Origin: an uncultured Gammaproteobacteria bacterium | GTDB taxonomy: Bacteria > Pseudomonadota > Gammaproteobacteria > UBA9214 | NCBI GenBank assembly: GCA_963701455.1 | Contig: CAVPAE010000001.1 | Coordinates: forward strand, 84,841-148,840 | Direction of reading: 5' to 3' | Length of the DNA: 64,000 nt | Shown here: positions 18,605 through 46,884 of the stretch, piece after piece | Position numbering within the stretch: position 1 is the stretch's first letter | Layout: each line of letters begins with the position of its first letter | Program-made: the position numbers and the translations under genes | The notes under the pieces: model-generated | What the model was told of the DNA's origin: nothing | The model's input: only the letters and a program-made list of their open reading frames with translations | The model's database searches: none

Positions 18605-18619
18605 GCAAATTTCGCTCCA
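18605..18619 (-). promoter_or_regulatory. Candidate sigma54 -24/-12 promoter for cytochrome 1 (minus-strand TGGAGC-N5-TTTGC)
   Basis: The GG and GC elements have canonical spacing and lie about 130 nt upstream of the start codon. A TGYCAG-type repeat array lies 100-170 bp further upstream. Confidence 0.35.
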
Positions 18620-18710
18620 GAACCCTTCCAGCAACATAAGTAGATGTACTTACGGCAGAATCCGGTAATTCAGTAATTCCAGACATACTGATGCTGCCCC
18701 TGATGACATC

Positions 18711-18770
18711 TTTGTCTGCCAGATTTGTCAGTATTGCCTGCCAGATATGGCAGACATAACGGGATGTCAC
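18711..18770. promoter_or_regulatory. Array of TTGTCTG/TTGTCAG/CTGCCAG/TGGCAG/ATGTCAC motifs (candidate enhancer/UAS)
   Basis: Five hexamer-like repeats plus the near-palindrome CTGCCAGATATGGCAG. The motif family is the same as the arrays upstream of cytochrome 2 and of the EBP gene. Confidence 0.4.
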
Positions 18771-19009
18771 TCCAACGCCAGCAACGTCAGGATACCGGGC
18801 GGCAACAGCGTGTCGCCGTGACGGACCGCGCAGAGGGGGAAACGGAGCACGGGATGAATGCCGGAATATCAATGACCGGCATCCATACGGAACGCTTGAC
18901 CTGGCGAAATGCAAACTGCCTGACCTGTGTTCAGGCCGGGCAGTTTATCAAGCAATGGTTCGCGGGCGTGTTGCCCGCGTGATGTTGCAGTATCAGAATA
19001 TCGCTTCGG

Positions 19010-20552
19010 CTATTGCTCCTTCTCCATCATCTCCCTCAGGTCCGCCTCGCGCTCGGACGTAACCGATCCTTCCCTGGCGGCCTTTTCGGTCAGCCCGGCA
19101 ATAAACTCGGCCTCACGCTTGAACTGGCGTGCCAGCTCCTCTTGATTGACGGCCACCTTGAAATCGTTCTTGCGCAACCCGATGACATAGTTGTCGAGTT
19201 TTTCGCCCATGTACAGGCGCAAGGTCATGCGGCGCGTCTGCGGCTCGCCCAGGTTAATCAGCTGGGCATCCTGCACGTCCAGCACCTTCACCAGGTGCCA
19301 GCCAGCCGGTGATTCCACCGGCCCACCCAGCACATCGGGTTCCAGGAAGAAGGTAAATTCATCCAGCTCCGGGAAACCGCTGCCGTGCAATACCCAACCC
19401 ATGTCACCCAGGGTCTGCTTCGCGGTGGGATCAATCGAATATTCCATGGCCGCCTGGAACATCGTCAGCTCACCGGCATCGATTCTCTGCTTGATGTCCT
19501 CGGCCTCCGCCTGCGTCTTCAACACAACCATCTGTACCTTGCGCATTTCCGGCACGCTGATCTGGTCCTTGTTGGCCTCGAAAAAGACTCTCAGTTCTTC
19601 GTCGGTAGGCATCCAGTCGTGTATCAGCTGACTGCGATGCAGGTTGATCAGGCGGGTCTTGCGGTATTCGCGAGTCCGCTCAACGTAGGATGGATCCGAC
19701 TCCAGACCGGCGGCGCGCCCTTTTATTGCCATCACCCGGGTATCGATGTATACATCCAGGCGTTTGAGCCGCTCGGTGTCGCTATCGAGAAAGAATTCCG
19801 CACTTTCAGCGCGCTTGTCCGCACCCCGCATCAACTCGCTGACTTCACCCCAGGTAATTGTGGTGTCATCCACCGTTGCTACGACTGTATCCTCCGTGCG
19901 CGCCTCATCACCTTCGGGGTTGAGAACATCAGGCTCTATCTCCACGGTTGCACCTTCACGAATACGTGAGCGCAGCCGGGTTTTCAGGGTATTCAGCTTG
20001 GCGTTGCGCAGACTGGCCTCGATGGCAAACCTGCTGTCCGCCGTCAGTTCATCCCCCTCCTTGGCCGTGCTGCATGAAGGACTCCTGGACCTCTTCCTCG
20101 CTAACCTGGATATCACCGTAGAGGATCTTTGAGCGGTACAGACTCGCCAGGACTGCCTCTTCAAAACGACGGATGTCCTGCTGGTAGACCGGTTGCTGAT
20201 CAACCCCCTTCTGCAAGGCATCGAGGTACAGCAGGTTGGCACTGATTGCCTTGTCCAGCAGGGTGATGATGGTCTGATTGCGCTCCGGCGTCCCGAGTGC
20301 AGGAATCGACAGGCCCACCATGGCCGAACTGTTCAGCATGGTATTGAGCAGGCTGAAGGTGATCTCCTCCGCCTCCACCGTGGCCACCACGTCGGTGAAC
20401 TCCTCGGCCGTCGCGGCCTGTGACATGGGAGCCGCGGTTGGCGGCGCGCTGCTTGCCGCCGTGTCATTCGACGGTTCGCTGCAGCCTCCCAGCAGGAACA
20501 GTCCAAGTACGATCGGTGTCAGGCATGTGAAGCTGATGTTGTTATGGCGCAT
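19010..20552 (-). pseudogene. Parvulin-type PPIase (SurA/PpiD-like) paralog 1, frameshifted
   Basis: The lipoprotein-like N-terminus (MRHNNISFTCLTPIVLGLFLLGGC) with the SurA-like N-domain is in one frame (ORF 20049..20615). The rest, including the parvulin domain (GWHLVKVLD), is in another (ORF 19010..20242). The frames switch at a GGGGG run near 20050. It is collinear with the intact 507-aa paralog at 38986..40443. Confidence 0.7.
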
Positions 20553-20656
20553 GATTGTTTTTTCCGAAGTCAGGTGAACGATATATCCTAATATACAAAT
20601 AGACTGTTGCGCCAATGGCGCCGCAGAACGGTAGCGTTCGAGGTCAAAATAAAGTC

Positions 20657-20689
20657 AAAAAAAAGGGAGAGGAAGTAGCTTCCTCTCCC
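20657..20689 (-). terminator. Intrinsic terminator downstream of cytochrome gene 2
   Basis: On the minus strand there is a GGGAGAGGAAG-CTAC-TTCCTCTCCC hairpin followed by T8. Confidence 0.75.
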
Positions 20690-20739
20690 AAACTTTGAGT
20701 CAGCTACCGGGGAGAAGTTCCTCCCCGGTGGCGTCTTTC

Positions 20740-23700
20740 TTACCAGCCGCAGTTCGAGCCGGCATAGGTGTTGGACATGTACTCCCAGGCCACTTCGGAA
20801 GCGCGTCCCTGTACCAGGTGGTTGTTCCACTTGGTGGTACAGCCCCTGCGCGACAGCGAGCTGCTACGGTCACCGTGACACGAGGTACAGACCGTGTTGG
20901 TCGGATCTTCACCGGCATTGATATCACCACCGACATGACCCAGCACTGCGATCTCCGCCTTGTCCATCATCTCGCGAGAACTGCGACCCTTGTAGGAATG
21001 CTCCGTCCAGGTCCTGTTGGTCGAGGAAATCTCACTGCTGTTATCCTGGTGACAGTTCAGACAGTAATCATCCAGTCCATCGGCCTCGGCCGTGAAGGTG
21101 TGCATCCAGGACACCGCCGCATCGTAGTTTTCCTTGATCGGCTGTCCGTTGTACGTCAGGCCATCCTCGATATGACTCGGAACACCGGCACCATTCACCT
21201 GGTGACAGGTACCGCACTTCAGCGGACCATGCGAACCGTCATGGTTCAGCGCCGCTGCCTGCTTGTACGACGTCGTGTCGATGTCCGGCGTCACCGGATA
21301 CAGACCGTGGATCGACTCGTGACAACCCTGACAGCTGATGTCCTGGTGACCACGTGAGTAACGCATCAGCGAGGCCTTGCGCGGGTAGTTGAACGGCGGG
21401 TAGGCATTGATGTTGCCGCTCTGCTCCACGAACGGTGCCGCGTGGCAGTCCGCACAGTGTGGCTCACCCGCTGACAGCCAGTGATCACGACCGTCGGTCG
21501 CTGCCGAGAACGGTACCGGTACCGCCACCGAACCCGCAGGCAGGGTCGCCTGTGCCGCCGTCACACAATCCGGCGTGGTGCAGAAGTCCATCGCATTCAC
21601 ACTGAAGTCACCGTCAACATCAACGCTGCCGCAGATATGGAACGCCGGGGCACCCGGATACTGCAGCACCGCAGTCGATCAGGCCGGTACCACCACCGGT
21701 CGAGCAGGCTGCCGCACTGGTTGACATTGACCTCAACCGTGGCCACGTTGCCGTCATGCGCCGGATCAACCGGGATGACGCCGAAGTAACCGGCCACGTA
21801 GTTACACAGACCCGGATCAGACTTCCAGATGGTGTGGGTGTCATCCACCGCATTGGTGTCCTTCGGATCCAGCCAGGAAATGGCCTGTGCCGTCGGTAGT
21901 ACCCGACCGCTGCAGCCACATCGCGCCAGCGTAGCACCGGCACGGCTCACGCACGTTGGCCATGCATCACCCGGCTGTGCATCACCAGGTCTTCCACGTT
22001 TTCAGCCTTCCACATCTCCTGACCCAGCTGCTGGTGACAGTTGGTGCACCACAGACCGCCGTTGACACTGTTGCCGTCGTTGAACACGTTGTCCGACAGC
22101 CACTGGCCGACCGGATTCAGGTGCTCAGGTGTCTCGGCACCGTCGGTATCCTTGCCCGGGTTGGAGTGCACGTCACGGCCGACGAAACAGCCGCCGTTGG
22201 CATCGCGGTTATCCGTAGTGGCGTAGAAGTTCTCGCCAGTCAGCGTGATCGGGTAGCCGCTCATGTCGCCGCTGGAACGGTGCGCCGGGTGACAACCCTG
22301 ACAACCACCATTACGGCCCTCACCGTCGCCAAAGACGATGTCACCACCCTCACTGACGCCCCGGTGATTATTATGGATCGCCTCGGTCACCGGCTTGATA
22401 ACCTGACTTCGCCATTGTGCGTGCGCTGATTTAACCACCGCAATGACGTTATCCGCATGACACTTCTGGCAGATCACACTCTCGTGACCCAGACGCGTGT
22501 TCTGCGGGGCTACCCCACCCACATCCGCGCCCGGATAGTTCGCCGTGAAGCTCGTGCCGTGCTCGACGTCATGGCCGTGCAGCATACTGATGGCCGCACT
22601 CTTCAGACGTGAGTACCAGTCCGAGTCACCGGCACCCGTATCGATGCCGTAGTAACCGCTCCAGAAGTTGTACTCCTGCTGCACCAGTGCCCACTGGGCC
22701 GGATCATCGTTCGGCGTGTTCGGCGTCATCGGTGCATTCGAGTGACAACGCTCGCAGTTCGGGATGTCGATCGGTGCCGTACCGAAACCGATCACCGGAT
22801 TACCCGCGCCGTCCAGCACTGCCGTGCTCGTTGGCACCGCCGTCGTAGTGATACATCTGTGCCTTCATGGCCACGTACGGACGTACCGAGTCCTCATCCA
22901 CCAGTCCGGGATCACCGAAGAAGTCGATGCTGTCCTCAAACGGTGTCAGCGGCAGACCCAGGGCCTCCCAGATGTTCGGCGAGGTCAGCATGATCGGCAG
23001 GTTCTCCAGTACCTTCATCTGCGTGAACACCACCGTGCCGTGTTCACCGGAGAAGGTCAGGACGTTGCCGTTGGAGAAACCGCCGCAGTCGTTGGGGGCA
23101 CCGCCCGCGGTAACCGGACCCATCGGGTGCAGTGCCGGACCACAGTCTGCCGGGTAGGCAACCATACCGTCGACACCGAGGCGGATCTTGTCGGCATCCG
23201 CCGAGGTACCCGTGCTGTTGCTGCCTTCCAGATTCTCGTAGAAGTACAGGTGGTTCCACACCGCATTCTGGTAGTTGTCGGTGGGATCAGTCAGATCGCC
23301 GTCACCCAGTACCACGCCGTCGGCACCGTTGTAGGAACCGGTCACGAAGGTACCGTCCGGATTCAGCGCCGCCGAGTCGAACGTGGTGTTCCAGGCCATC
23401 AGCGAGTTGCCCTCGACCGCACTGATCAGCGTGCTGGTCTGGCGCTTGCCGTTGCCGTCGTTACGCGGCTGCGCATCGTGCCAGTACTTCAGCACGTATT
23501 TCTTGAAGTTGCCGCTACCGTCCAGCTCCAGATCGCGCAGTACCGTCTGGCGTCCCAGCGCATCCTTGCCTTCGTTCGGATCGCCTTCCATCAGGCGGGC
23601 ATAATCACCGTTGTCGATCCGGGTCAATGGTGTTGGGCTTGACCACCTGCGCCAGGATGGAGTTGTACACCGGCAGCACGCAGCAGTAGGCAAACTCGAA

Positions 23701-24315
23701 ACCGGTGCAGTGCATGCCCAGCTCGTAGTTCATCATGATCTTGAAATCGGTCTGCGGATTGTCCAGACCAATATCAGGTGGAGGCAGTGGCGGCAGTGTT
23801 GTCGTGGTGGTTGCCGTCCCTGTTGTCGTGGTCGTCGTCGCCGTGGCCGTTGTCGTGGTCGTCGCCGTGGCCGTGGTCGTGGTCGTTACCGGAGCCGTGG
23901 TCGTGGTCGTCGCCGGTGCCGTTGTCGTGGTCGTTGTCGTGGTCGTGGTCGTTGTGGTTCCTCCAGTGACGTTCACCGTGACGCTGGCAGAACAGGTGTG
24001 ACCTTTGTCATTCTGACCATTCAGGGTGGCCTGGAAGTTACCGGCAGCAGCATAGCTGACAGTCACATTCTGTGAACTGGAGCTTGAAGGAGAACCACCG
24101 GCAAATGCCCATGAATAAGCTGTATGGACTTTTGCCCGTGACAGTGCCGTGAAACTGACTGAGCCACCGACAGCAATCTTCGCCGGGCTGGGTACGGTGG
24201 TAATCGAACAGTTGGCAGACTGGGCGGCCTGGGCGTTGGATACACCCAGCAACACCAGCGTACAGAGCATCAGCCCGGTTACTGCAGTTGAAAGAAATCG
24301 TTGCGCTAGAGACAT
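20740..24315 (-). pseudogene. Giant multiheme cytochrome paralog 2, split into at least 5 frames
   Basis: Fragments 23605..24423, 22800..23693, 21947..22837, 21597..21950 and 20740..21669 together rebuild the same architecture as paralog 1. They include the signal peptide, a long poly-Thr linker, the NYELGMHCTGFEFAYCCVLPVYNSILAQVVK motif and all the heme motifs (CERCH, CQKCH, CQGCH, CTNCH, CADCH, CQGCH, CGTCH, CLNCH, CTSCH). Confidence 0.8.
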
Positions 24316-24425
24316 GGCACTTTCCCCTATTGTTATGCGACTGTCCAGGTCGTAAAACATTCTGGTTGTAAACATTCCGGGCCGACATCGGCTCCCTTCC
24401 GGAATAGCGAGACGCCTAAACAATA

Positions 24426-24441
24426 AGCAGATTCCATGCCA
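24426..24441 (-). promoter_or_regulatory. Candidate sigma54 promoter for cytochrome 2 (minus-strand TGGCAT-N5-CTGCT)
   Basis: GG at -24 and GC at -12 have the correct spacing, about 100 nt upstream of the MSLAQRF start. An AT-rich stretch, which may be an IHF site, and the TGTCAG array lie upstream. Confidence 0.45.
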
Positions 24442-24520
24442 ACCTACCTCATTAAGGGTAAGTAGAAGTACTTATTACATAATTTTTATGACGACACCAG
24501 AGAAGTATGCGGATGAAGGC

Positions 24521-24580
24521 TGACAGTTATGTCAGGTATCTGTCAGAACTGTCAGCCATTGTCAGGACAGCACTGTCAGG
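24521..24580. promoter_or_regulatory. Array of six TGACAG/TGTCAG hexamers at about 10-bp spacing (candidate enhancer for the sigma54 activator)
   Basis: The hexamers start at about 24521, 24530, 24541, 24550, 24560 and 24574. The array includes the palindromes CTGACAGTTATGTCAG and GACAGCACTGTC. Confidence 0.5.
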
Positions 24581-24600
24581 AACAAGCAGGAAACCCGGAA

Positions 24601-25549
24601 TCAGGCTGGTGTCATAACAGGTGTCACTGCTTCATCAAAATCATCTATCTTGCTTGCTGCTACAAACAAATCAAAGCTCTGACTCCTGATTAGCGGGATT
24701 TTCGAGCAAACTTCGTCAAAAGCCACGAGCCCACGCGCCACCGATTCCGCCGCGGGAATCCATTTCATGACGGGCAGCAGATCACTCATTCCACACAGGG
24801 GCTGGGAAAGAAAAGAAAAATACTTTGTCGCATTGATCCGGAACCCCGCAGCTTCAATGGTCTTCAACCAGGGTTTGGATCTGAATGCCTTATGATCATT
24901 ACCAAAGCGCGCCATTCGCCTGTTTACAATGCTCCGCGGCAAGCGCAGCAATATCGAGTCATCATTGGGTTCGGAAAGCAACAAGGTTCCGCCGGTTTTC
25001 AATACCCGATGGGCTTCTGCAAGGGCTGCCCGCTCATTGGCCATATGATGCAAGGAGCCGCGAAAACATACGACATCGAAAATACCGGAGGGAAACGGCA
25101 TTTTCTCACCCGGACAGGCTATCCACTCCATCTTTTCGTTGTCACCCAGCCTGGCCTTTCCCTGGATCAGCATTGCCTTCGAAATGTCCATACCGAAGAC
25201 GCGCTGTCCTCTGCAGGCACAGGTCCCGGGAGAGGTCGCCATCACCACAGCCGCAGTCGAGAATATAGCCGGGATCAGGAGGCAAGTGCTCCAGGAATTG
25301 CCGGTTCCAGTAGCGAGAGTAGACTTCCGAGAAGTCTGTGCTATATCGCTTGTCATACTCACCGGAAAGTTCCTTGTGAAGATCGATCTCGGCCTGGTGC
25401 TGCTCTTCCAGGTCACCACCTGCCGTGAAGTCGACTATTCCCCGGTCTATTGAAAACTCTCTGGAACAGGAACTGCACTTGCGCGCTTCCCAATCCAGTT
25501 CGCTCTTGCATTCCGGACATCTGAGTACTGTATTAGATTTCTGATCCAT
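24601..25549 (-). pseudogene. Class I SAM-dependent methyltransferase with an N-terminal zinc ribbon, frameshifted
   Basis: The N-terminal fragment (ORF 25142..25549) carries the zinc ribbon (CPECKSEL..CSSCS) and motif I (ILDCGCGDGD). The rest of the methyltransferase fold (VVCFRGSLHHMANERAALAEAHRVLKTGGTLLLSEP) is in the frame of ORF 24601..25419. Confidence 0.6.
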
Positions 25550-25558
25550 TGAAGACCA

Positions 25559-26449
25559 CTATTGATTCCGGCGTGAGATACCAGTTCCCAGTCTCCAGAG
25601 TGCCAACAGCAAAACCGGAAAGAGAATATTAATAATAAACTCCAGCACCAGTACCGGCGGAATCGCCTCGGGAGCTACACCCCACGCCCCTAGCAATGTC
25701 AGCAGAGAGCCTTCCCGAACACCAATCCCCGCAATACTGACCGGAAGGCTCGCCAGTGCACCAACACTAACCGTTATCGCGACAATATCGAGCCAGTTCA
25801 GGTCAATGTCCACCGCCCGGAATATCAGCACATTGCTGGACACGAACATAAAAAAGCCGGCGCCCGTTAATATCCACCCTGCCAGCAACGCATTCCGCCC
25901 CAGCCTGCGTCCAAACCAGTACGATATCAGGAAGTACGCCAGCAACAAAACGATTCCGGACAGTAGCAGCAGGTTTGCCGATACCCCGTACTTCGTACTA
26001 ACCACGCCGGCTGTCAGAACAATCGCGACCGGAAGGTACAACAGGTCTGATAACTTATCGAATACCGTAACCCAGACTCTCTTGCCGGTATCCATCCCGG
26101 TATTGCGGAGCAGATATATGCGCGAGAACTCTCCCAGGCGTGATGGAGTAATCGACCCTATTGCGACACTCAGAAGATACAGGTCGATCCACGCACGGAA
26201 GGGCAAGCGTTGCGTCGCAAGCCGTTCAACCCACAGGCGCAACCGCAGCATGCGAAAACAGTAAACCAGACTAACGGCCAGGGCACTGCCGAGGAACAAC
26301 GGTATCGATACGTTCTGCAATCGATCCATAGACCCCGCCCAGTCTATATCCCGAAGCAGGTAATAAACCCACAGCAGACCGCCCAGGGAGATTGCGGCTT
26401 TCGCGATGTACCCGGCCCTGGCAGTGGACGCTTTTTTATCGATACGCAC
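25559..26449 (-). CDS. Flippase-like integral membrane protein (lysylphosphatidylglycerol-synthase TM-region family, UPF0104-like)
   Basis: It is a 296-aa polytopic protein. Its topology and size match the flippase-like family that often partners GT2 polyprenyl-phosphate glycosyltransferases. Confidence 0.5.
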   Translation of the reverse strand: MRIDKKASTARAGYIAKAAISLGGLLWVYYLLRDIDWAGSMDRLQNVSIPLFLGSALAVSLVYCFRMLRLRLWVERLATQRLPFRAWIDLYLLSVAIGSITPSRLGEFSRIYLLRNTGMDTGKRVWVTVFDKLSDLLYLPVAIVLTAGVVSTKYGVSANLLLLSGIVLLLAYFLISYWFGRRLGRNALLAGWILTGAGFFMFVSSNVLIFRAVDIDLNWLDIVAITVSVGALASLPVSIAGIGVREGSLLTLLGAWGVAPEAIPPVLVLEFIINILFPVLLLALWRLGTGISRRNQ

Positions 26450-26506
26450 GTTGAATACTATTCTGGCCGAATAAAGATATAACGCAGCAGCAATCGACAG
26501 TTCCCA

Positions 26507-27553: not shown

Positions 27554-28374
27554 GCAGCACGTGCCTCAGCACGAAACTCAATGAATAGTACGAGAAAAAA
27601 CAGCAGCACAATAAACCCTGCACCCGTGATGATCATGCGACGTTTATTATTTGATGGATCACTTGCGACAGCAACACTCTCTTCCAGTATAACCAAGCCA
27701 TGTTGCCCACTGATTGAATACTCGATAATTGCGTAAACACTGTGTCTGCTTCCGGGCAAGGCCCCGTTGTTCTTTAAGGAATAGCCAATCTGCTGTTCTT
27801 CTCCGCCAGGGATACTCAGTTTGTCACTCCTCCCCGCCACGACAAGCTCGGCAGGTGAAACCATTGTTAACCGGGCCTCAAGGGGGGAATCCATGGTGTT
27901 CCTGATGCGCAGATCCAGGCTCCCGTCACCAGCCACCTGCTCTGCAACCATCTCTCCCGCAACCGGAACTTCCAGCGGAAGACTTTTCCCGATCTGAACG
28001 CCCGTCACGCTAACCAGTGAGTACGGGTACATGTAGGCGTCGTGAAAGCGTAATTGTACGATCAGTGGATACACGCCGGCTTCGGGAAAGGCCAGTTCAC
28101 CAACAGGAAAGCTGTGGACCCATATCCGCCCTCCATCAAATGCAACATGAGGTACGGTTTCAAGGCCTGTTTTCACTCCGGCCAGTGTGAGATAGGGAGT
28201 AACCACGAGAGCATCCTCGTTGCCCCTGTTGTCAATCTCCAGTCGAACATCCACCGATTTTTCTGTTACGGTAACCGAGGTTTTTACGACCATTACAATT
28301 TCTGACGCAAGGGCAGGAGCCGGGGAAAACACCATGCACACAATCAATGAAAGGAATCTCCATCGGCAGATCAT
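27550..28374 (-). CDS. Hypothetical single-pass membrane protein (signal peptide, beta-rich periplasmic domain, C-terminal TM anchor)
   Basis: It has an N-terminal signal peptide (LSLIVCMVFSPAPALA) and a C-terminal TM segment (IITGAGFIVLLFFLVLFI). Confidence 0.4.
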   Translation of the reverse strand: MICRWRFLSLIVCMVFSPAPALASEIVMVVKTSVTVTEKSVDVRLEIDNRGNEDALVVTPYLTLAGVKTGLETVPHVAFDGGRIWVHSFPVGELAFPEAGVYPLIVQLRFHDAYMYPYSLVSVTGVQIGKSLPLEVPVAGEMVAEQVAGDGSLDLRIRNTMDSPLEARLTMVSPAELVVAGRSDKLSIPGGEEQQIGYSLKNNGALPGSRHSVYAIIEYSISGQHGLVILEESVAVASDPSNNKRRMIITGAGFIVLLFFLVLFIEFRAEARAA

Positions 28375-30226: not shown

Positions 30227-30228
30227 AT

Positions 30229-33160: not shown

Positions 33161-33165
33161 GTTAT

Positions 33166-38835: not shown

Positions 38836-38985
38836 TATCTCCCCCTCATTCGTGACTGCGATCGCGCCTTGGGCGGCCGCCTTTATGCTCGGTACAGGTG
38901 CTCCCGCATTATACCCACCACCTTTTGGAGCGGCGCCTCGCCGCAATGGGACGGGATACATTGCCCCGCTGGTTGAACGCACGCC

Positions 38986-40443
38986 TCAGGAAGCCCCCTG
39001 CTCCTGCTGTGGCGTCACTTCAGGCTGAGCCGGAACCTGCCCCATTTCCTCTTCGAGCAGTCGGTTCAGCACATCATTGTAGACTTCAACCTTGTAACGG
39101 TTTTTCCTCAGGTTGGCGGTGTACTCGTTCATGCGTTCCTTGATCATCATGCGCCGGGTCTTGCGCCAGGTGTCGGCCTGCGAGATGTTGGTAGACTCCG
39201 CCTCGCTGATTTCCAGAACCTTGACCAGGTGCCAGCCGGCGGGTGATTCCACCGGCCCCCCGATTTCGTTCAGCGGCAGGGAAAACGTCAGCTCCTCGAG
39301 TTCGGGAAAGCCGCTGCCCTGTGAGACCCAGCCGATTTCTCCCAGGGTCTGCTTCGCACCCGGATCGATGGAGAAATCCTTCGCCGCCTCGTAGAAGGTC
39401 ATCTCTCCGGACTCGATCTCCTGCTTCACCCGTTCGGCATCCTCTTTCACCATCATGACCACCATCTGTACCTTGCGCGCCTCGGGGATGGTGATCCTGT
39501 CCCTGTGTTCCTTGAAATAGGCACGGATCTCGTCGTCGGTGGGCTCCAGTTCCTCGATCAGCTGGCCCCGGTGCATGCTGACCAGGCGGAGTTTCCTGAA
39601 CTCGTTGAGCCGCTCCTGGAAACGCGGGTCGGCTTCCAGGTTTGCGGCCCGCGCTTTCCTGAGCATAATGCGCCGGTCGATGAAATCATTCAGCACCGCC
39701 AGGCGTTTTTCCACCGAATCATCGCCCTTCGGCGAGGAAAACAGGCCCCTGACATCGCCCCAGGTAACCGCTTCCTGGTCCACCCTTGCGACAACTGTAT
39801 CACTTTTACGGGTCACGTCCTGTGACGGGTCGAGTTGCGTCTGGTCAACCGTGACCTCGAGGCCCTCCCTGAGCCGCTCACGCAGTCCTTTCTTGCGGGC
39901 GGTGAACTTATCCTTGCGCAGCGAGGCCTCGATGGCCGTGCCCAGGTCCTTGGTAAAGGGCGTTCCCTCGACAATATTATTCTCGTAGAACGCCATGATC
40001 TCCTCATCAGAGACCGGGATATCACCAATCACGACCTGTTGCCGGTACATGGTAACCAGCGTGGACTCGGTGAAACGTTCCACCTCATACTGATAGACAG
40101 GGGCCTGGTCCATGCCCTTGTCCAGAGCGTCGAGGTAGAGCAGGTTGGCGCTGACGATCTTGTCCAGCAGTGTGATCCGGACCTTGTTTCTCTCCGGGGT
40201 TCCCGGTGGCGGGATGTTCATGCCGATAACACCGGAACTGTTCAGCATGATCTCGATCTGGTTGAAGGTGATGGGCTGATCGCCCACCCGGGCGATAATC
40301 TCGTTGGGCTGTTCCCGGGTGATGACCTGGATACCGACCTGTGCGCCGGCCTTGTCCGCTTCAGGCGCAGCACTTGCCGAAACGGGCACGGTAGCGAGCA
40401 GGGTACAGACCAGCGTAATGAATACAGAAATAAATCTTGGCAT
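38986..40443 (-). CDS. Parvulin-type PPIase (SurA/PpiD-like) paralog 2, intact
   Basis: It has a signal peptide, a SurA-like N-domain and a parvulin domain (DFSIDPGAKQTLGEIGWVSQGSGFPE...GWHLVKVLE). The start was placed at MPRFISV. Confidence 0.8.
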   Translation of the reverse strand: MPRFISVFITLVCTLLATVPVSASAAPEADKAGAQVGIQVITREQPNEIIARVGDQPITFNQIEIMLNSSGVIGMNIPPPGTPERNKVRITLLDKIVSANLLYLDALDKGMDQAPVYQYEVERFTESTLVTMYRQQVVIGDIPVSDEEIMAFYENNIVEGTPFTKDLGTAIEASLRKDKFTARKKGLRERLREGLEVTVDQTQLDPSQDVTRKSDTVVARVDQEAVTWGDVRGLFSSPKGDDSVEKRLAVLNDFIDRRIMLRKARAANLEADPRFQERLNEFRKLRLVSMHRGQLIEELEPTDDEIRAYFKEHRDRITIPEARKVQMVVMMVKEDAERVKQEIESGEMTFYEAAKDFSIDPGAKQTLGEIGWVSQGSGFPELEELTFSLPLNEIGGPVESPAGWHLVKVLEISEAESTNISQADTWRKTRRMMIKERMNEYTANLRKNRYKVEVYNDVLNRLLEEEMGQVPAQPEVTPQQEQGAS

Positions 40444-40553
40444 GGGAATAATCCTGGTTATTGAAAACATTTTATACATCCAGTGCATACAACTTAATGT
40501 TAGTAACACAGCTACGCCCCGAAGTTCAATTTATATACGGGATGAATACCATC

Positions 40554-40615
40554 TTGTAGGAGCGGCGCCCTCGCCGCGATGAACCATAATCGCGCCGTGG
40601 GCGGCGCTCCTACAA
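40554..40615. repeat. REP-like inverted repeat, the same family as 33088..33160
   Basis: The arm TTGTAGGAGCGGCGCCCTCGCCGCGAT pairs with ATCGCGCCGTGGGCGGCGCTCCTACAA. Confidence 0.7.
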
Positions 40616-40744
40616 CAAGGTTCTTAACCGTCATTGGGGCATCGTTCCCGGCATGCTCCAGGCCAGTCTCTCGACCCGGGCTATGCCCGTAAAAAGAGTT
40701 TCACCTTCTCCATACCTCCCGCGATGCACCTACCTCCCTGTATG

Positions 40745-40779
40745 CAAAAAAATGGAGGGGAGGTTGCCCTCCCCTCCAT
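40745..40779 (-). terminator. Intrinsic terminator downstream of cytochrome gene 4
   Basis: On the minus strand there is an ATGGAGGGGAGG-GCAA-CCTCCCCTCCAT hairpin followed by T7. A second hairpin (GCCTGCCCGATATCCGGGCAGGC) lies just after the stop codon. Confidence 0.75.
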
Positions 40780-40827
40780 GTTGTTGTTAACGCCTGCCCG
40801 GATATCGGGCAGGCGCTCCTGCAGCGG

Positions 40828-43800
40828 TTACCAGCCGCAGTGGGTGCCGTCTGCTGCCGGTTGGCCGGCGACGTTGTTGGCAGTCACCTCCACCCACGCA
40901 ACCTCGGAGGCACGGCCCTCGACCAGGTGGTTCTTCCACTTGGTCGTGCAGCCCCTGCGTTGCAGTGAGCGGGTGCGGTCGCCGTGGCAACCCTTACACA
41001 CCGTCTGCTCCGGATCCTCGAAGGCCGGATCGCCGGACACGTAGCCCTGGCTCGCGATCTCTGCCTTGTCCATCGCATCCCGGGTCACGCGGCCATCAAA
41101 GGCGTGGTCGACCCACTTGCTCGCGGAGGAGCTGATCAGCGCACTGTTGTCACCGTGGCAGCGGGTGCAGATGAAGTCCGCCGGGTCCACGTCCTCGGTG
41201 TAGGTGTGCATCCAGGAGACTGCCGCGTCGAAGTCATTGTCGATCGGCGTGCCACGGAAATCCAGGGCAGTGTTCACCCGGCCATCCGGATTCACATAGA
41301 CGCCATCACCATTGGTCTGGTGGCAGGCGCCACACTTCAGCGGCCCGTGAGAGCCATCGGCATTCATGCTCATCGCCTGGGCGTAGCTGGTCTCGTCGAT
41401 CGCCTTGTCGCCGTACATCCCCGGTGGTGTCACCGGATAGAGGCCGTGGATCGATTCATGGCAACCCTGGCAGGTGATGTCCTGGTGACCGCGGGAATAG
41501 CGGTTCAGGGACGCCTTGCGCGGGTAGTTGAACGGCGGGAAGGCATTCACGTTGCCGCTCTGCTCCGTATACGGCGCCGCGTGACAGTCCGCACAGTGCG
41601 GTTCACCCGGTGACAGCCAGTGGTCACGGCCGTCGGTCGCGGCCGAGAACGGTACCGGCACTGCCGCCTGACCGGGGCCGGTCAGGGTCGCGTTCGCCGC
41701 ATCCACACAGTCCTGCGTGGTGCAGAAGTCCATGAGAGCGACGTTGACATCACCATCCACATCCAGCGATCCGCAGATGCTGAAATCAGGATTGCCGTTG
41801 CCGTCGCAGTCCGGTCCCGGCAGCCCCACACCCGTGGAGCAGTCGGTGGGTACGATCGGTTCGGACTGCAGGTTCACCTCGATCGTCGCCACGTTGCCGT
41901 CCTGTGCCGGAGTCGGCTCTGCGCCGAACAGCGAGGCGACATGGTCACAGAGACCGGGATCCGGCGCCCATATGGCGTGGGTCTGGTCCGTGGTCCGGTG
42001 GGAGCCCGGATCGATCCAGCTCTCCACCTGGTCAAGCGTATAGCTGGTACCCCGCGCCGCGTTGACCGCATTCACCACATCCAGCAGGTCGGTGCCGCCC
42101 GGCTCGCGCACGTGGCCCGGGTCACCGGGTTCAGCATGCACCAGGCTGACGACGTTCTCCGCCTTCCACATCTCCTGGCTGAACTGCTGGTGACAGTTGG
42201 TGCACCAGAGGCCCTTGCCCGAAGGGCCATTGGGGGAGGCGTCGGAGCTGACCTGGTTCCGCAACCACTGACCCACCGGATTCAGGTGCTCTGGGGTCTC
42301 CGCGCCACCGGGAGCGTCCTTCATGGCATTGGAGTGGACGTCACGGCCCACGAAGCAGCCGCCGGCCGCATCGCGGTTGTCCCCTGCTGCGAAGGCGTTG
42401 GAGCCGTCCTCGGTGATCGGATAGCTGGCGAGACCGCCGTCGGAGCGGTGCGCCGGATGGCAACCCTGGCAGCCACCACTGCGACCCTCGGCATCGGCGA
42501 ACTGGACATTGCCGGCCTCGCAGACGCCGTCACCGGCCCCCGCACTCGTGTCGCAATCTGCGTTCACACTGCACTGATTGTGGCCACCCAGGCCTGCACT
42601 GCAATAGAGCTCGGTTGTCTCACGGTGGTTGAAGTGAATCGCCTCGGTCAGCGGCGGGATCAGGTCGCCGGCTTCACAGGTGAGACTGCCGGGTCCGCAG
42701 TTGGCCGACTTGACTGTCGCGATGACGTTGTCGGCATGGCAGCGCTGGCAGAGTACCGACTCGTGGCCGAGGCGGTAGTTCTGCGGAAGACCGAAGCCGG
42801 TGCTCGGATAGTTACCCATGAAATTGGTGCCATGCTCGTTGTCGTGGATGTTCAGGATCGAGATGGCCGCCCCCTTCAGGCGCGAGTACCAGTCGGAGTC
42901 ACCCCCGCCGGTGTCGATAGCGTAGTAGGTGTTCCAGAAGTCCATCTCCAGCTGCACGTTCGCCATGACATCGGGGTTGTTGTTGACATTCTGCGCGCTG
43001 TTAATACCCGAGAAGTCGGAGTGGCAGCGCTCGCAGTTGGGAATGTCGATGGGTGCGGTACCAAAACCGATCACCGGCTTGCCGTCGTCGAGGACCGCTG
43101 CACCCGGGGTGCAGGCAGAGCCGACACAGTCGGCCTCATGCAACTGGGCCTTCATGGCGACGTACGGACGAATCGAGTCCTCGTCCACCAGTCCGGGGTC
43201 ACCGAAGAAGTCGATGGTGTCCTCGAACGGTGTCAGGGGCAGGCCCAGGGCCTCCCAGATCCGCGGAGAGGTAAGCATCACTGGCAGGTTCTCCAGCACC
43301 TTCATCTGGGTGAACACCACGGTGCCATGATCGGTGGAGAAGGTCAGCACGTTGGAAAGGCCAGCCGTGGAACCCGGTCCCATGGGATGGAAGGCGGGAC
43401 CGCTGTTGTCCGGCAGCACTGTTGAGAACGGGATATGGGCATTCGGCATGCCGAGGCGGATCTTGTCAGCCTCCGCGCTGGTAACCCCCGGAGGGATGGT
43501 GCCTTCCAGGTCGGCGTAGATGTAGAAGTGGTTCAACCACGCATTGGCATAGTTGTCCCCGGCCTGGCCGAAGGTGCCGTCACCCTGCACGACGTTTTGC
43601 GCGCCGTTGTAGTCATCGTAGATCAGCTTGTTGCCGGCATCCACATCCGCACCGTCGAATACCGTTTGCCACATCAGCAGGGAGTTGCCCTCCACATTAC
43701 TGATCAGGCGACTGGTCTGGTTCTTGCCGTTGGGATCATCGTTGCGTGGCTGGGCATCGTGCCAGTAGGTCAGCATGTACTTCTTGAAGTTGCCGTTGGC

Positions 43801-44481
43801 GTCCAGTTCCTTGTCGCGCACGACCGTGGGCCGGCCAAGAAAGTCGAGCCCGACACTGTGGTCAGCTTCCAGGGTGTCCGGGAATCCACCGCCTTTGTCC
43901 GTCTTCACCACCTGGGCAATGATGGAGTTATACGGCGGCAGCACGCAGCAATAGGCGAACTCGAATCCGGTGCAGTGCATACCCAGCTCGTAGTTCATCG
44001 GGATGATGAAGGCCTTCTGGCCGGCGTTCGCAGCAACGCAGCCGATGTCTTCCACGCATTCGCTGTCAGCGCAGTCCAGGTCGCCGTTGCCGTTGTTATC
44101 AATGCCATCGTCGCAGATTTCCAGGTTGGCGGTCTGGGCCAGCGTGGTCGTGGTGGTCGTTGTTGACGACGTTGATGTTGTTGTACCTCCTCCCTCAGTC
44201 GTGGTCGTCGTTGTTGACGTACTTGTGGTTGACGTTGTCGACGATGTCGTTGTGCCCTGACAGTAGTTAGAGCTGGTGCAATCGGGATCGTTGCAGTCGA
44301 TCAACCCGTCGTTGTCGTTGTCGACGCCGTCGCTACACTTGTTGTCGCCCTTTTCTTTCTGGCCGCCACCGCCGCCCGGTGCGGCGTAGACGTCTCCCGG
44401 CACGGTGAGTGCCAGCGGTACTGCAAGCGCAAGCCCCAGCGAAAGCAGGCATGCGGTGAAAATGCGTAGTGGATTCCTCAT
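40828..44481 (-). CDS. Giant nonaheme c-type cytochrome, paralog 4 (Cys-rich Ca-binding-like N-repeats, poly-Thr/Ser linker)
   Basis: It is 1217 aa with nine CxxCH motifs. The N-terminus has two CxDGxDNDxDGxxDCxDxDC repeats, and the linker is TTTSSTTSTTSTSTTTTTT...TTTTTTT. It carries the conserved motif NYELGMHCTGFEFAYCCVLPPYNSIIAQVVK. Confidence 0.85.
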   Translation of the reverse strand: MRNPLRIFTACLLSLGLALAVPLALTVPGDVYAAPGGGGGQKEKGDNKCSDGVDNDNDGLIDCNDPDCTSSNYCQGTTTSSTTSTTSTSTTTTTTEGGGTTTSTSSTTTTTTTLAQTANLEICDDGIDNNGNGDLDCADSECVEDIGCVAANAGQKAFIIPMNYELGMHCTGFEFAYCCVLPPYNSIIAQVVKTDKGGGFPDTLEADHSVGLDFLGRPTVVRDKELDANGNFKKYMLTYWHDAQPRNDDPNGKNQTSRLISNVEGNSLLMWQTVFDGADVDAGNKLIYDDYNGAQNVVQGDGTFGQAGDNYANAWLNHFYIYADLEGTIPPGVTSAEADKIRLGMPNAHIPFSTVLPDNSGPAFHPMGPGSTAGLSNVLTFSTDHGTVVFTQMKVLENLPVMLTSPRIWEALGLPLTPFEDTIDFFGDPGLVDEDSIRPYVAMKAQLHEADCVGSACTPGAAVLDDGKPVIGFGTAPIDIPNCERCHSDFSGINSAQNVNNNPDVMANVQLEMDFWNTYYAIDTGGGDSDWYSRLKGAAISILNIHDNEHGTNFMGNYPSTGFGLPQNYRLGHESVLCQRCHADNVIATVKSANCGPGSLTCEAGDLIPPLTEAIHFNHRETTELYCSAGLGGHNQCSVNADCDTSAGAGDGVCEAGNVQFADAEGRSGGCQGCHPAHRSDGGLASYPITEDGSNAFAAGDNRDAAGGCFVGRDVHSNAMKDAPGGAETPEHLNPVGQWLRNQVSSDASPNGPSGKGLWCTNCHQQFSQEMWKAENVVSLVHAEPGDPGHVREPGGTDLLDVVNAVNAARGTSYTLDQVESWIDPGSHRTTDQTHAIWAPDPGLCDHVASLFGAEPTPAQDGNVATIEVNLQSEPIVPTDCSTGVGLPGPDCDGNGNPDFSICGSLDVDGDVNVALMDFCTTQDCVDAANATLTGPGQAAVPVPFSAATDGRDHWLSPGEPHCADCHAAPYTEQSGNVNAFPPFNYPRKASLNRYSRGHQDITCQGCHESIHGLYPVTPPGMYGDKAIDETSYAQAMSMNADGSHGPLKCGACHQTNGDGVYVNPDGRVNTALDFRGTPIDNDFDAAVSWMHTYTEDVDPADFICTRCHGDNSALISSSASKWVDHAFDGRVTRDAMDKAEIASQGYVSGDPAFEDPEQTVCKGCHGDRTRSLQRRGCTTKWKNHLVEGRASEVAWVEVTANNVAGQPAADGTHCGW

Positions 44482-44541: not shown

Positions 44542-44557
44542 TGCAAATTGCAGGCCA
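44542..44557 (-). promoter_or_regulatory. Candidate sigma54 promoter for cytochrome 4 (minus-strand TGGCCT-N5-TTGCA)
   Basis: The spacing is canonical GG-N10-GC, and the -12 element is an exact TTGCA. It lies about 50 nt upstream of the ATG. An AT-rich region at 44590..44630 may be an IHF site. A palindrome lies further upstream. Confidence 0.5.
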
Positions 44558-44634
44558 ACAACCAACAGCTCTACAACCACCTGTTTTTCTTTTTTATTAG
44601 CATGTTAGCAACCTATTATTTACCTGTGGCACGA

Positions 44635-44656
44635 CACTATTGGCATGACAATAGTG
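44635..44656. promoter_or_regulatory. 22-bp near-perfect palindrome CACTATTGGCATGACAATAGTG (candidate activator site)
   Basis: It is an inverted repeat about 90-110 bp upstream of the candidate -24/-12 element. A TGTCAG motif follows 17 bp upstream. Confidence 0.4.
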
Positions 44657-45172
44657 GCGAAAATGGCAGTGTTGTCAGACTGGATTGCATCTCGATACAC
44701 GCAGTGCAAACCGAAAACTGCGGCAACCCGCTGCATAAAATCCTTTTGGTAACTGCATTGAAGAACAGCACCCGAATTGATTTTTCCAAAACCAGGGATG
44801 AGGACTTCAATTGCGAGAAACTGCCTTGCCGATATCCGCCGCACTGCGCCAATCAACCGGGGAATGCGGACACCTGCCAGGCAGACACAGTGGCGCTCCC
44901 CCGTTATTGCCGGGCATCGCCGGGAATGGCGCGGCGTTTAATTCAGGAGCCTCTGAATAAGTCGTCACCCCGGCGAAGGCCGGGGTCCAGCCTGTTGATT
45001 TCCTCTATGATTCGCTTCGCTTACCCTGCGGGCCGCTCTCCGGGCGCTCAACACGCCTTGCGCTTTTGTCCGGCATGCGCCGGAATGACGAAACGGGACT
45101 TGTTCAGGGTCTCCTTAATTTGTTCCAGCATGATGATCTGATGCCCCGCTGACAGGATTAGCCCCCCCGCCC

Positions 45173-46564
45173 CTAACCCAGACCGTATCGCTTGAGTTTC
45201 CGGTACAGGGTGCGCTCGCTGACACCCATGGCCTCGGCGACTTTTTTGCGGCTGCCGCCATGCTGCGCCAGCAGGTCCGTAATATGCTGCGCCTCGATAC
45301 TATGCAGTGACGTAGCGGCAGCCTGCGCGGGCGGCTTCCGGACTTCCTGCGGCTCGGCCAGGGATTCGGGTTGGCAGGGCTGCACCTTGCCCGCTGCATG
45401 CAAGTCGAATACTTCCCCGAGGATATCGGCGTCGATTTCACCATTTTTGCTGTGGGTCGCGGCAATAAACAGGATATTGCGCAGCTCCCGCACATTGCCC
45501 GGGTAGTCATACTGCTTAAGCCGCTCCACCGCGGCGCTGGTGAGACTGAAGCGGCGCGCCATGGTATTGCTGATCGGCTCCAGCAGGTTGGGCGCCAGCA
45601 TCTGGACATCATCGATACGTTCCCGCAGCGGCGGTAAGCGCACCGCCAGGCAGGCGATGCGGTAATACAGGTCTTCGCGAAACTGGCCTTCCTTGACGCG
45701 GTCCCAGAGGTGCCGGTTAGTGGCACAGATGACCCGCACATCGGCCTTGCGCGGACCGCGCCCACCCACCCGGCGGTACTGCCCGGTTTCCAGGACGCGC
45801 AGCAGCTTGGCCTGTTGCGACATTGGCAGTTCACCCACCTCGTCAAGGAACAGGGTTCCGCCATGAGCCTGTTCGAACAGACCGATGCGCTCCCCGACGC
45901 TTCCGGTGAAGGCGCCGCGCGCATGCCCGAACACCTCGGCCTCGAACAGGGGTTCGGTCAGCACCGTGCAGTCAACCGTCAGAAACGGCTGGTCACTGCG
46001 GGGTGAATTCCTGTGTATATAGCTGGCGGCGAGTTCCTTGCCGGTACCGGTTTCGCCCTGCAACAGGACCGGCGCCTGTGCCGCGGCAACCATTTTCAAC
46101 TGATCCATGCAAGCCAGAAAAGGTGGCGTACTACCGACCATACGCTTGCCATCAATACGGCGGTCTTCAGGCCCGGAGATCTCCTGGATCAGTTCCCCCA
46201 TGTAGAGTTCCCCGTCGCTGCCACGCAACGGGTATGCGGTGACTCGCACCTGGCACATGCGATGATCCTTGTCATAGTGGATATGCAAACAGGAATCCCG
46301 CTGCCCTATCTCGAACAGGTTGACGTGCGGACAATCCTCGCCGGACTCATGGCACGGCGCATCGTTGCTGTGACTGATGCGGTAGCAGGGCTGCCCGACG
46401 GCCCTTACCCTGTCGGTCCCAAAGGTTCGCTCGTAGGCGCTGTTGACCGCCAGGATCTGGTAATCCCTGTCAATGATGACAAATGGCTGCTCGTGACTGT
46501 CGACCAGTGACTGCAGCTCTATTGGTACAGACTGCGTTGCACCGCCCTTTAATATTGCCTTCAT
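45173..46564 (-). CDS. Sigma54-dependent transcriptional activator (PAS-like sensor, AAA+ sigma54-interaction domain, Fis-type HTH), with no receiver domain
   Basis: The central domain has GETGTGKE and the GAFTGS motif (HARGAFTGS). The C-terminal HTH is AEAMGVSERTLYRKLKRYGL. The N-terminal roughly 150 aa is PAS-like and contains a Cys/His cluster. Confidence 0.85.
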   Translation of the reverse strand: MKAILKGGATQSVPIELQSLVDSHEQPFVIIDRDYQILAVNSAYERTFGTDRVRAVGQPCYRISHSNDAPCHESGEDCPHVNLFEIGQRDSCLHIHYDKDHRMCQVRVTAYPLRGSDGELYMGELIQEISGPEDRRIDGKRMVGSTPPFLACMDQLKMVAAAQAPVLLQGETGTGKELAASYIHRNSPRSDQPFLTVDCTVLTEPLFEAEVFGHARGAFTGSVGERIGLFEQAHGGTLFLDEVGELPMSQQAKLLRVLETGQYRRVGGRGPRKADVRVICATNRHLWDRVKEGQFREDLYYRIACLAVRLPPLRERIDDVQMLAPNLLEPISNTMARRFSLTSAAVERLKQYDYPGNVRELRNILFIAATHSKNGEIDADILGEVFDLHAAGKVQPCQPESLAEPQEVRKPPAQAAATSLHSIEAQHITDLLAQHGGSRKKVAEAMGVSERTLYRKLKRYGLG

Positions 46565-46595
46565 AGCGCCCCCCCGTGGCTATTCAGCGAATTAT

Positions 46596-46660
46596 CTGAC
46601 TGTCATTATTGACAGTTCCTGACACCCGCGAAGGCTAACACTGACAGGAATGTCATGCTT
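46596..46660. promoter_or_regulatory. TGACAG/CTGTCAT repeat cluster between the EBP gene start and the divergent sigma54 promoter
   Basis: It contains the perfect inverted repeat CTGTCATTATTGACAG plus CTGACAC, CTGACAGG and ATGTCAT motifs. The motif family matches the arrays upstream of cytochromes 1 and 2. Confidence 0.45.
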
Positions 46661-46868
46661 TAATATAGATCAAGTGTACGACATACACACCCAACATATC
46701 CCAAAAGAAAAAACTGCCGGGCAGCGCAAGTCACAACCCGACTCACACAATACAATAACAACACCATGTTTTACATGACTATCTAACCACACAATAGCAG
46801 CAACCAGGGCACCCAACTGCTGCACCGAATCCACAAATTCCGTCATGCGAACACCAGACAATCAAGAC

Positions 46869-46884
46869 TGGCACTCATATTGCT
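46869..46884 (+). promoter_or_regulatory. Candidate sigma54 promoter TGGCAC-N5-TTGCT, reading toward the ccm operon
   Basis: It is a near-consensus -24/-12 element on the plus strand, about 210-270 bp downstream of the TGACAG cluster. The first substantial plus-strand gene downstream is ccmA at 47341. Confidence 0.5.

Follow-up and report, generated by a model that had tools for sequence, protein, structure and literature searches.

Organization of the locus

The window analyzed here is a 64-kb stretch of DNA from an uncultured gammaproteobacterium resembling sulfur bacteria, in which the gene of a predicted enhancer-binding protein (hereafter the activator) is found together with genes for large secreted multiheme cytochromes. 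The minus strand carries three paralogous cytochrome clusters, and ccmABCDEFGH follows the activator gene on the plus strand. Candidate sigma-54 promoters and inverted-repeat sites, which we call dyads, are found in the intergenic regions (Table 1). Our subject is the local regulon that the activator, the dyads and these promoters may form.

Cytochromes 1 and 4, the latter being the gene behind promoter C, are both intact. The initial annotation had also described a cytochrome 2 in cluster B. Its promoter and upstream array are present, but the gene itself proved to be a paralog of cytochrome 1 broken across several frames: a tblastn comparison with cytochrome 1 places its parts (20740 to 24388) in frames 2, 3, 1, 3 and 2. 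Cluster B would be either a pseudogene or the product of assembly indel errors. Cytochrome 1 had no match among PDB sequences, and no porin gene for a PCC3 porin-cytochrome cluster was found around the cytochrome targets.

Table 1. Features of the window, numbered from its first nucleotide
Feature	Position	Strand	Basis and remarks
Cytochrome 1	14951-18466	(-)	Intact, secreted, 1171 amino acids, 9 CXXCH motifs (Pfam, CXXCH count)
Candidate sigma-54 promoter A, TGGAGC-N5-TTGCC, TGGAGCGAAATTTGCC	18604-18619	(-)	Weakest of the four, 8/11 positions
Enhancer array A, dyads CTGCCATATCTGGCAG, CTGACAAATCTGGCAG, CAGACAAAGATGTCAT	18703-18753		Dyad scan
Cytochrome cluster B	19010-24388	(-)	Cytochrome 1 paralog (up to 92% amino acid identity), then prolyl isomerase at 19010-20242 (tblastn, Pfam)
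Candidate sigma-54 promoter B, TGGCAT-N5-CTGCT, TGGCATGGAATCTGCT	24426-24441	(-)	Homologous promoter in locus L002 is TGGCATGGTATCTGCT
Enhancer array B, three dyads CTGACAGTGCTGTCCT, CTGACAGTTCTGACAG, CTGACATAACTGTCAG	24520-24579		CTGACATAACTGTCAG is a perfect match
Cytochrome cluster C	35193-44481	(-)	Pfam, CXXCH count
Thioredoxin-like protein of cluster C	35193-35798	(-)	Pfam
Smaller c-type cytochromes of cluster C	36510-38128	(-)	Pfam
PPIC-type prolyl isomerase of cluster C	38986-40509	(-)	Pfam
Nine-heme secreted protein of cluster C, 1217 amino acids	40828-44481	(-)	59% identity to cytochrome 1
Candidate sigma-54 promoter C, TGGCCT-N5-TTGCA, TGGCCTGCAATTTGCA	44542-44557	(-)	About 60 bp 5′ of the ATG at 44481
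Match to the integration host factor (IHF) consensus, TAGCAACCTATTA	44606-44618	(+)	1 mismatch; between array C and promoter C; background 0.025 per 100 bp
Enhancer array C, best dyad CTGACAACACTGCCAT (44663-44678) and three overlapping weaker dyads	44632-44678		
Putative FisR-family enhancer-binding protein, 463 amino acids	45173-46564	(-)	Pfam domains, translation, ortholog alignment
Dyads upstream of the activator gene, CTGTCATTATTGACAG (46600-46615) and CTGACAGGAATGTCAT (46641-46656)	46600-46656		Centers 41 bp apart
FNR/CRP-type box, TTGATCTATATTAA	46660-46673	(-)	1 mismatch to TTGAT-N4-ATCAA
Fourth candidate sigma-54 promoter, TGGCAC-N5-TTGCT, TGGCACTCATATTGCT	46869-46884	(+)	Divergent from the activator gene
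Candidate sigma-54-dependent small RNA, ~155 nt	46896-47054	(+)	Promoter, terminator, conservation
Boundary, outside the proposed regulon: sigma-70-like promoter candidates (47266-47309) and ccmA ATG (47341)	47266-47343	(+)	Conserved

Candidate sigma-54 promoters and dyads in the window

All four GG-N10-GC elements proposed in the initial annotation were confirmed, with coordinates that agree to within 1 bp. The fourth is the only perfect match to the sigma-54 consensus in 64 kb, and it is kept in L001, L002, L201, L202, L203, L206 and L207 (L numbers denote loci sampled around relatives of the activator). Scored alone, the three minus-strand elements are no better than some 20 other sites in the window; what weight they have as candidates comes from their position and their conservation in relatives, as the letters alone do not establish them. 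GG-N10-GC elements are present and conserved at the predicted targets in the window and in relatives, and −24 elements of the TGGAAC type, comparable to that of promoter A, occur at orthologous promoters.

Two further observations concern these promoter regions. A perfect palindrome of the form TAAGTA-N4-TACTTA, TAAGTACWTCTACTTA, is found at 18637 to 18652 and 24459 to 24474 on the minus strand, exactly 17 nt 5′ of the −24 element at both promoters A and B. It may reflect mere paralogy of the two regions or be bound by a further factor; L001 and L003 contain partial matches (AAGTAC). The predicted 5′ leader of promoter B (24330 to 24415, minus strand) contains a conserved hairpin-like element, UUCCGGAAGGGAGCCGAUGUCGGCCCGGAA, and similar sequences are found in L002 (about 1890 to 1930) and L004 (about 1750 to 1790).

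The hexamer clusters described upstream of the promoters were confirmed, as was their arrangement in inverted repeats, and they are best read as 16-bp dyads of the form MTGNCA-N4-TGNCAK. With up to two mismatches, CTGACA-N4-TGTCAG has 15 matches in the window versus about 2.4 expected, and the alternative spacings N2, N3, N5 and N6 gave just 1 to 5 matches. Nine of the 15 fall in the four intergenic regions. Eight core matches within coding regions were examined, six of which (15552, 16551, 16716, 21320, 22290 and 22458) are heme-motif codons, C-Q-x-C-H being encoded by TGY CAG NNN TGY CAY; these look-alikes in the cytochrome genes arise by chance from what is encoded there and have no regulatory meaning. 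In the half-site, TG-N-CA, the four fixed bases form their own reverse complement and the central one differs from site to site, which is why the initial annotation listed mixed TGACAG and CTGTCA forms; asking whether the repeats are direct or inverted is ill-posed for the same reason.

Each of the three nine-heme cytochrome operons has two to four dyads approximately 70 to 160 bp 5′ of the −24 element, in many cases separated from each other by about 22 bp, and the dyads of the fourth promoter lie about 215 to 270 bp upstream of it. Array B had been described as six hexamers with a phasing of about 10 bp. All six are real, but their spacings are 14, 10, 9, 11 and 10 bp, and they resolve into three 16-bp dyads and one additional half-site, the dyad centers being separated by 24 and 20 bp. 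The spacers between arrays and promoters are A+T rich as claimed (55 to 63%), but the proposed IHF site was found in one of the four only, which points weakly to an involvement of IHF.

Conservation of dyads and promoters with the activator family

The co-occurrence of dyads and sigma-54 elements was assessed across relatives rather than along one whole genome, using 80 loci around activator relatives from genome collections and nine from metagenomes. Allowing one mismatch, the dyad core was found 163 times, in 34 clusters, in the window and 41 ortholog loci (633 kb), versus 6 core matches and no cluster in 35 control loci (573 kb) where the AAA+ domain is all that is shared. Dyads accompany activators of 38 to 87% identity and precede the orthologous activator gene in about 45 related loci. 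Nearly all orthologs have a dyad pair just 5′ of the activator start, typically 41 to 44 bp apart, and such a pair is also present at 38 to 40% identical homologs in Magnetococcales and Alteromonadaceae; at the Rubrivivax homologs the pairs are shifted to CTGCCA-N4-TGGCAG. Symmetrized, the matrix of these sites corresponds to M-TG-(A>T>C)-CA-N4-TG-(T>A>G)-CA-K.

We then counted clusters of at least two exact TGNCA-N4-TGNCA sites that have an outward-pointing sigma-54 match (at least 9 of 11 positions) 30 to 280 bp away. Twenty-six of 41 dyad clusters have one, when 9.6% per cluster is expected (binomial p ~5e-17), a statistic that overcounts independent events because the loci are related to each other. 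The test that the initial annotation had called for is positive. Dyad centers precede the first base of TGG by 71 to 162 bp, a step of about 22 bp is common between tandem sites, and the promoters of orthologs are often perfect or near-perfect consensus sequences, such as TGGCACGGTTATTGCT in L001 and TGGCACGACTATTGCT in L003. In seven related loci the distance from the divergent promoter to the dyad pair is 210 to 226 bp. The genes behind the relatives' promoters encode large secreted multiheme proteins containing PKD or Ig-like domains, followed by a prolyl isomerase. The co-occurrence of dyads with activator and with promoters argues for the core of the initial proposal, in which a single enhancer-binding protein would act through inverted-repeat sites on sigma-54 promoters before cytochrome genes.

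The activator protein and its putative sensory cysteines

The initial annotation had recognized a PAS-type enhancer-binding protein, and the Pfam domains PAS, Sigma54_activat, AAA_lid and HTH_8 bear this out. The AAA+ domain (PF00158, E 4e-63) has Walker A and B sequences, GETGTGKE and LFLDEVGE, and a GAFTGS loop, and the C terminus is a Fis-type helix-turn-helix (HTH_8). The top relatives in the PDB are NifA, NtrC1, LuxO and ZraR; the protein scored below the cutoff of every named NCBIfam activator model. Its nearest relatives (53 to 87% identity) come from uncultured Gammaproteobacteria labeled Ectothiorhodospiraceae, Thiogranum or Thiotrichales, and metagenomes contain more than 1,300 unnamed relatives of the family.

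Three cysteines of the PAS domain, C60, C71 and C78, are invariant in about 40 homologs, within the motif GQPCYR[IV]SH..D.PC...GE.CP. A tblastn search of plasmids and chromids with the PAS region matched only six records, including the Cupriavidus metallidurans CH34 chromid (46% identity over 84 residues). The CH34 homolog, which is 39% identical to the activator over its full length (E 3e-104), is encoded divergently from an ETHE1-type persulfide dioxygenase gene and an SQR-like gene (pdo-sqr), and its only N-terminal cysteines, C53, C64 and C71, are in register with C60, C71 and C78 of the activator. Because of this register and of the full-length homology to a pdo-sqr-linked regulator, we assign the activator to the FisR family on the strength of sequence comparison; the protein used for this comparison was the positional ortholog from C. 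metallidurans and not the characterized one from C. pinatubonensis. FisR of C. pinatubonensis is a sigma-54 activator of pdo-sqr whose Cys53 and Cys64 form a tetrasulfide with sulfane sulfur (PMC9495516; PMC7315123; PMC12170894). Given the alignment of C60, C71 and C78 with the Cupriavidus cysteines, the signal of the activator is probably sulfane sulfur.

The CH34 fisR-pdo spacer contains TGCCA, TGGCA and TGACA half-sites in steps of 8 to 10 bp, about 80 to 100 bp 5′ of a −24/−12-like element, in the same layout as the spacers of the window. Among the more distant homologs, two adjoin genes for SQR-like flavoproteins, in L038 (with a divergent TGGCATGTCAATTGCT) and in L047 (with cydAB). Other distant homologs are found beside a PhsA/Psr-like molybdoenzyme (L046), cydP-cydA (Variovorax) or a Rieske protein (Leptothrix, Rubrivivax).

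The putative promoter of the activator gene

Upstream of the activator gene, the dyad pair is accompanied by an FNR/CRP-type box. Such a box, with at most two mismatches, is present in 22 of 43 orthologs, versus 0.09 expected per 260 bp, and in 18 orthologs a dyad starts 18 to 20 bp after the start of the box. The order in the window is box, distal dyad, 3 nt and a −10 hexamer of the form TAnnnT, with 22 nt from box to hexamer. This geometry suggests that the box is centered at about −41.5 from the predicted transcript start, as in class II promoters of the FNR/CRP family, and the second dyad would lie at about +11 to +26 of that transcript. Induction of the activator gene at low oxygen and autorepression are what this arrangement suggests. 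The dyads may serve both as autoregulatory operators and as the enhancer of the divergent sigma-54 promoter. A perfect TTGAT-N4-ATCAA box is also found elsewhere in the window, at 7671 to 7684 on the minus strand, 22 nt from a TAGATT sequence and before the PhoU/PHO4 operon.

A candidate small RNA between the activator gene and ccmA

The initial annotation had suggested that the ccm operon, toward which the fourth promoter points, possibly belongs to the regulon. In the window this suggestion is not supported, as a strong, conserved terminator follows after about 155 nt and ccmA has a conserved sigma-70-like promoter candidate of its own. The segment between the sigma-54 promoter and the terminator is most likely a sigma-54-dependent small RNA whose expression is predicted. 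It consists of a variable 5′ region, an invariant ACAACCUCUCUCCGG motif, a hairpin and an intrinsic terminator (stem at 47025 to 47046, with 8 G+C-rich bp, then U8), and its fold has a z-score of −3.4 relative to shuffled sequences. Six distinct homologs (the window, L001/L201, L202, L203, L206 and L207) keep the dyad pair, the sigma-54 promoter and a near-invariant 3′ module of 80 nt, CUCUCUCCGG-hairpin-CCCGUUUCCCAAGGGCGACCCCACUCGCCCU8. Their 5′ parts differ in sequence and in length (149 to 349 nt), and the flanks diverge as well. The 3′ module contains a 1-nt indel and the homologs share no reading frame, which argues against a protein product. The element has its own promoter, an intrinsic terminator, no conserved open reading frame (ORF) and a conserved unpaired motif, all as expected for a small RNA.

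RNAalifold analysis of the six homologs gave a compatible structure that tolerates G-U, A-U and G-C changes, with no compensatory double change among these close sequences. A search of the whole window and of 46850 to 47100 against Rfam returned nothing at or near gathering scores, and scanning for complements of the CUCUCUCC motif, with duplex folding against local 5′ untranslated regions, revealed no target above shuffled controls.

In L003 (9159 to 9789), L033 (9617 to 9779) and L209 (9190 to 9751), the divergent sigma-54 promoter is duplicated, and its first copy precedes a 31-residue hydrophobic ORF and a terminator. The ORF was discarded as a related element: it resembles a duplicated N terminus of the adjacent large gene and has no counterpart in the window. 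The terminator region behind it resembles that of the small RNA, which hints that the small RNA may derive from a duplicated 5′ gene fragment of this kind.

A model for the regulon and the points that weigh against it

We consider it likely that these elements form a local sigma-54 regulon run by the FisR-family enhancer-binding protein. Dimers of the activator would bind the 16-bp dyads, MTG(A>T>C)CA-N4-TG(T>A>G)CAK. By analogy with the published behavior of the family, sulfane sulfur acting on the PAS cysteine pair C60/C71 (C53/C64 in FisR) would render the AAA+ ring active, and the active ring would open sigma-54 closed complexes through a loop over the A+T-rich spacer. The fourth promoter, as its terminator and conservation indicate, would give rise to a terminated RNA of about 155 nt and not to ccm mRNA. 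The activator gene itself would have a class II promoter of the FNR type, on which the two dyads occupy the spacer and the beginning of the transcribed region, coupling low-oxygen induction to autorepression.

Several points weigh against this model, beginning with the fact that we infer every one of its functional steps. Promoter A matches only 8 of 11 consensus positions, and cluster B may be dead. Neither rpoN nor fnr was seen within the 64-kb window, the only stretch covered. No sqr or pdo gene is found there either, the predicted targets being cytochromes and an RNA; the activation of sulfide-oxidation genes that characterizes FisR has no counterpart in the window, a difference that concerns the content of the regulon and not the protein family. 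The FisR of Acinetobacter baumannii lacks the sensory cysteines (PMC7315123), and thus the sensing chemistry is not uniform within the family. To these must be added the relatedness of the sampled loci mentioned above, as well as the existence of a published binding site with the same core, the scatter of this core in metagenomes, and a related regulator with an iron-sulfur (Fe-S) cofactor, which are taken up with the alternatives below.

Alternative explanations

The dyads might be bound by a response regulator of the CopR/CusR type or by PhoB, with the activator binding elsewhere. phoB (3009 to 3752) and phoR are indeed in the window, and the initial annotation had noted a likeness of the hexamers to PhoB half-sites. 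That likeness is superficial: the Pho-box pattern has 5 matches versus 4.7 expected, the phosphate genes and the phoBR cluster of the window have no dyad in our scan, and the arrays stand 70 to 160 bp from sigma-54 elements, not in place of a sigma-70 −35 element as direct CTGTCAT repeats with an 11-bp period would. The closer look-alike is the copper box, since TGACA-N4-TGTCA is the published CopR/CusR consensus (PMC12428095) and the dyads have this very 10-bp core. The core alone is too generic to define a regulon. When metagenomes were scanned for exact tandem cores (TGACA-N4-TGTCA, N7-9, repeated), most of the 120 loci obtained were unrelated repeats or other palindromes; a sigma-54-like site lay no more than 220 bp away in only 18 of them, compared with about 5.6 expected, and 3 had an activator gene. 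However, CopR and CusR are OmpR-family regulators that act at sigma-70 promoters, usually through a single site near −35, whereas the dyads of the window occur in in-phase multiples far 5′ of sigma-54 promoters, are linked to the gene of an enhancer-binding protein and have no copper genes around them. With position, copy number, promoter type and gene context all different, we rejected membership of the dyads in the CopR/CusR class. They track the activator family across classes and are absent from the loci of other activators, and no other conserved candidate enhancer is present, so that binding by another regulator is very improbable. Still more remote is the explanation that the three cytochrome −24/−12 matches are chance or relics of duplication, with sigma-70 transcription of the genes and the activator serving at the dyads as a repressor alone. 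In a window with 60% G+C none of the three elements stands out by itself, and promoters A and B are paralogous copies. Yet promoter C and the orthologous promoters, in spacers that cannot be aligned, keep GG-N10-GC at the same distance from the dyads, the orthologous elements are often perfect consensus sequences such as the two given above, and the activator has retained its GAFTGS loop and ATPase motifs.

The architecture could also be as proposed and the signal different, if the three PAS cysteines and conserved histidines bound an Fe-S cluster or a metal and responded to redox state, O2 or NO. OrpR, a PAS-AAA+-HTH protein, provides the precedent: a redox-sensitive [4Fe-4S] cluster is bound by three conserved cysteines of its PAS domain (PMC8359166). 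Some neighbors of the family are respiratory (Rieske protein, cyd, NnrS) and not sulfur genes, and the FNR box already suggests oxygen-linked control. On the other hand, in its cysteine spacing (11 and 7) and the motif around it the activator agrees with the Cupriavidus regulator at the FisR position and not with OrpR, where the spacing is 9/4, and SQR-like genes adjoin the homologs in L038 and L047; we regard an Fe-S or metal sensor as unlikely. As for the fourth promoter, it might control ccm after all, the ~155-nt RNA being a leader with read-through or a regulated terminator and cytochrome maturation belonging to the regulon. It is directed at ccmA, most relatives show linkage between the activator gene and ccm, and in L208 and L209 sigma-54-driven cytochrome/PKD genes lie directly 5′ of ccmA on the same strand, which makes read-through more plausible there. 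In the window, the terminator is the most conserved part of the spacer, about 290 nt with repeats resembling repetitive extragenic palindromes (REP-like) separate it from ccmA, and conserved sigma-70-like hexamers stand just 5′ of ccmA, all of which makes control of ccm improbable.

Relation to known regulatory systems

In the FisR-family model, the wiring of activator, upstream dyads and −24/−12 promoter is that of standard enhancer-dependent transcription. The activator shares its three-domain layout with FisR of C. pinatubonensis JMP134, a name also used in A. baumannii. It has in common with the C. metallidurans regulator at the FisR position a gene divergent from its target and aligned sensory cysteines, and the Cupriavidus spacer likewise has arrays of TG(N)CA half-sites about 80 to 100 bp 5′ of a −24/−12-type element. 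In contrast, the predicted targets in the window are three operons for nine-heme secreted cytochromes and a small RNA, not sulfide-oxidizing enzymes; the half-sites are spaced by N4, whereas Cupriavidus has a mix of N3, N4 and N5; and a putative FNR-type promoter precedes the activator gene.

Short terminated RNAs are transcribed from sigma-54 promoters under enhancer-binding proteins in the LuxO-Qrr and GlrR-GlmY systems, as proposed here for the RNA of the window. qrr1 adjoins luxO in divergent orientation, and the RNA gene of the window has the same position relative to the activator gene. However, the latter RNA has no sequence or Rfam relationship to Qrr or GlmY, and the activator is not a response regulator.

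BccR of Geobacter sulfurreducens is likewise a sigma-54 activator whose gene and target, the cytochrome operon cbcBA, are divergent, with redox-dependent switching (bioRxiv 10.1101/2021.04.15.440034). Unlike the activator, it has a receiver domain and not a cysteine-containing PAS domain, its targets are inner-membrane bc-type proteins, it belongs to a different phylum, and its system includes no small RNA. The OrpR protein of Desulfovibrio vulgaris resembles the activator in its PAS-AAA+-HTH layout, three PAS cysteines, palindromes on both sides of its own gene and small local regulon, but differs in its C52/C61/C65 spacing, its Fe-S cofactor and its unrelated 17-bp palindrome, GGGCGYRTTTTGCGCCC (PMC8359166).

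Neighboring regions of the window

Between clusters B and C, a block from 24600 to 34500 has a G+C content of 50 to 53%, compared with about 60% otherwise, and contains methyltransferase, LPG-synthase-like, GNAT/FemAB, glycosyltransferase, YdjC and YfhO-like genes; the block may represent a cell-surface glycan island gained by horizontal transfer. A phosphate cluster (400 to 9800) comprises pst permease and ATPase genes, phoB, phoR (3969 to 5354), and genes for a PHO4-type transporter, a PhoU-like protein and PPK2. A REP-like 19-mer, ATCGCGCCGGAGGACGGCG, occurs on the plus strand at 47079, 47200 and 56897, the first two copies being located between the small-RNA terminator and ccmA. The ccmA gene of the window (47341 to 47817, plus strand) encodes 158 residues with an aberrant C terminus, versus 208 in relatives, and is either a pseudogene or affected by an assembly indel error.

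Significance

As far as literature searches show, what would be new is a FisR-type sensor tied to multiheme cytochrome operons instead of pdo-sqr, together with an undescribed candidate sigma-54-dependent small RNA and a map of binding motif and promoters that can be scanned for in metagenome-assembled genomes. The putatively autoregulated activator promoter, overlapped by an FNR-type box, may be a further novelty.

A broader proposal, which we put forward tentatively and with more doubt than confidence, is that sulfur-oxidizing Gammaproteobacteria of sediments use a FisR-type sulfane-sulfur sensor with FNR-dependent low-oxygen gating to deploy large surface-type nine-heme cytochromes, with PKD/Ig-like and MtrC-like parts, and a sigma-54 small RNA from the same promoters. 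If this is true, the cells would switch to extracellular electron transfer in response to sulfide, and the regulon would give genetic access to the electrical coupling that has been proposed between free-living sulfur oxidizers and minerals or cable bacteria. If the signal is sulfane sulfur, the cytochromes would be candidate sulfide-induced electron conduits in uncultured sulfur oxidizers.

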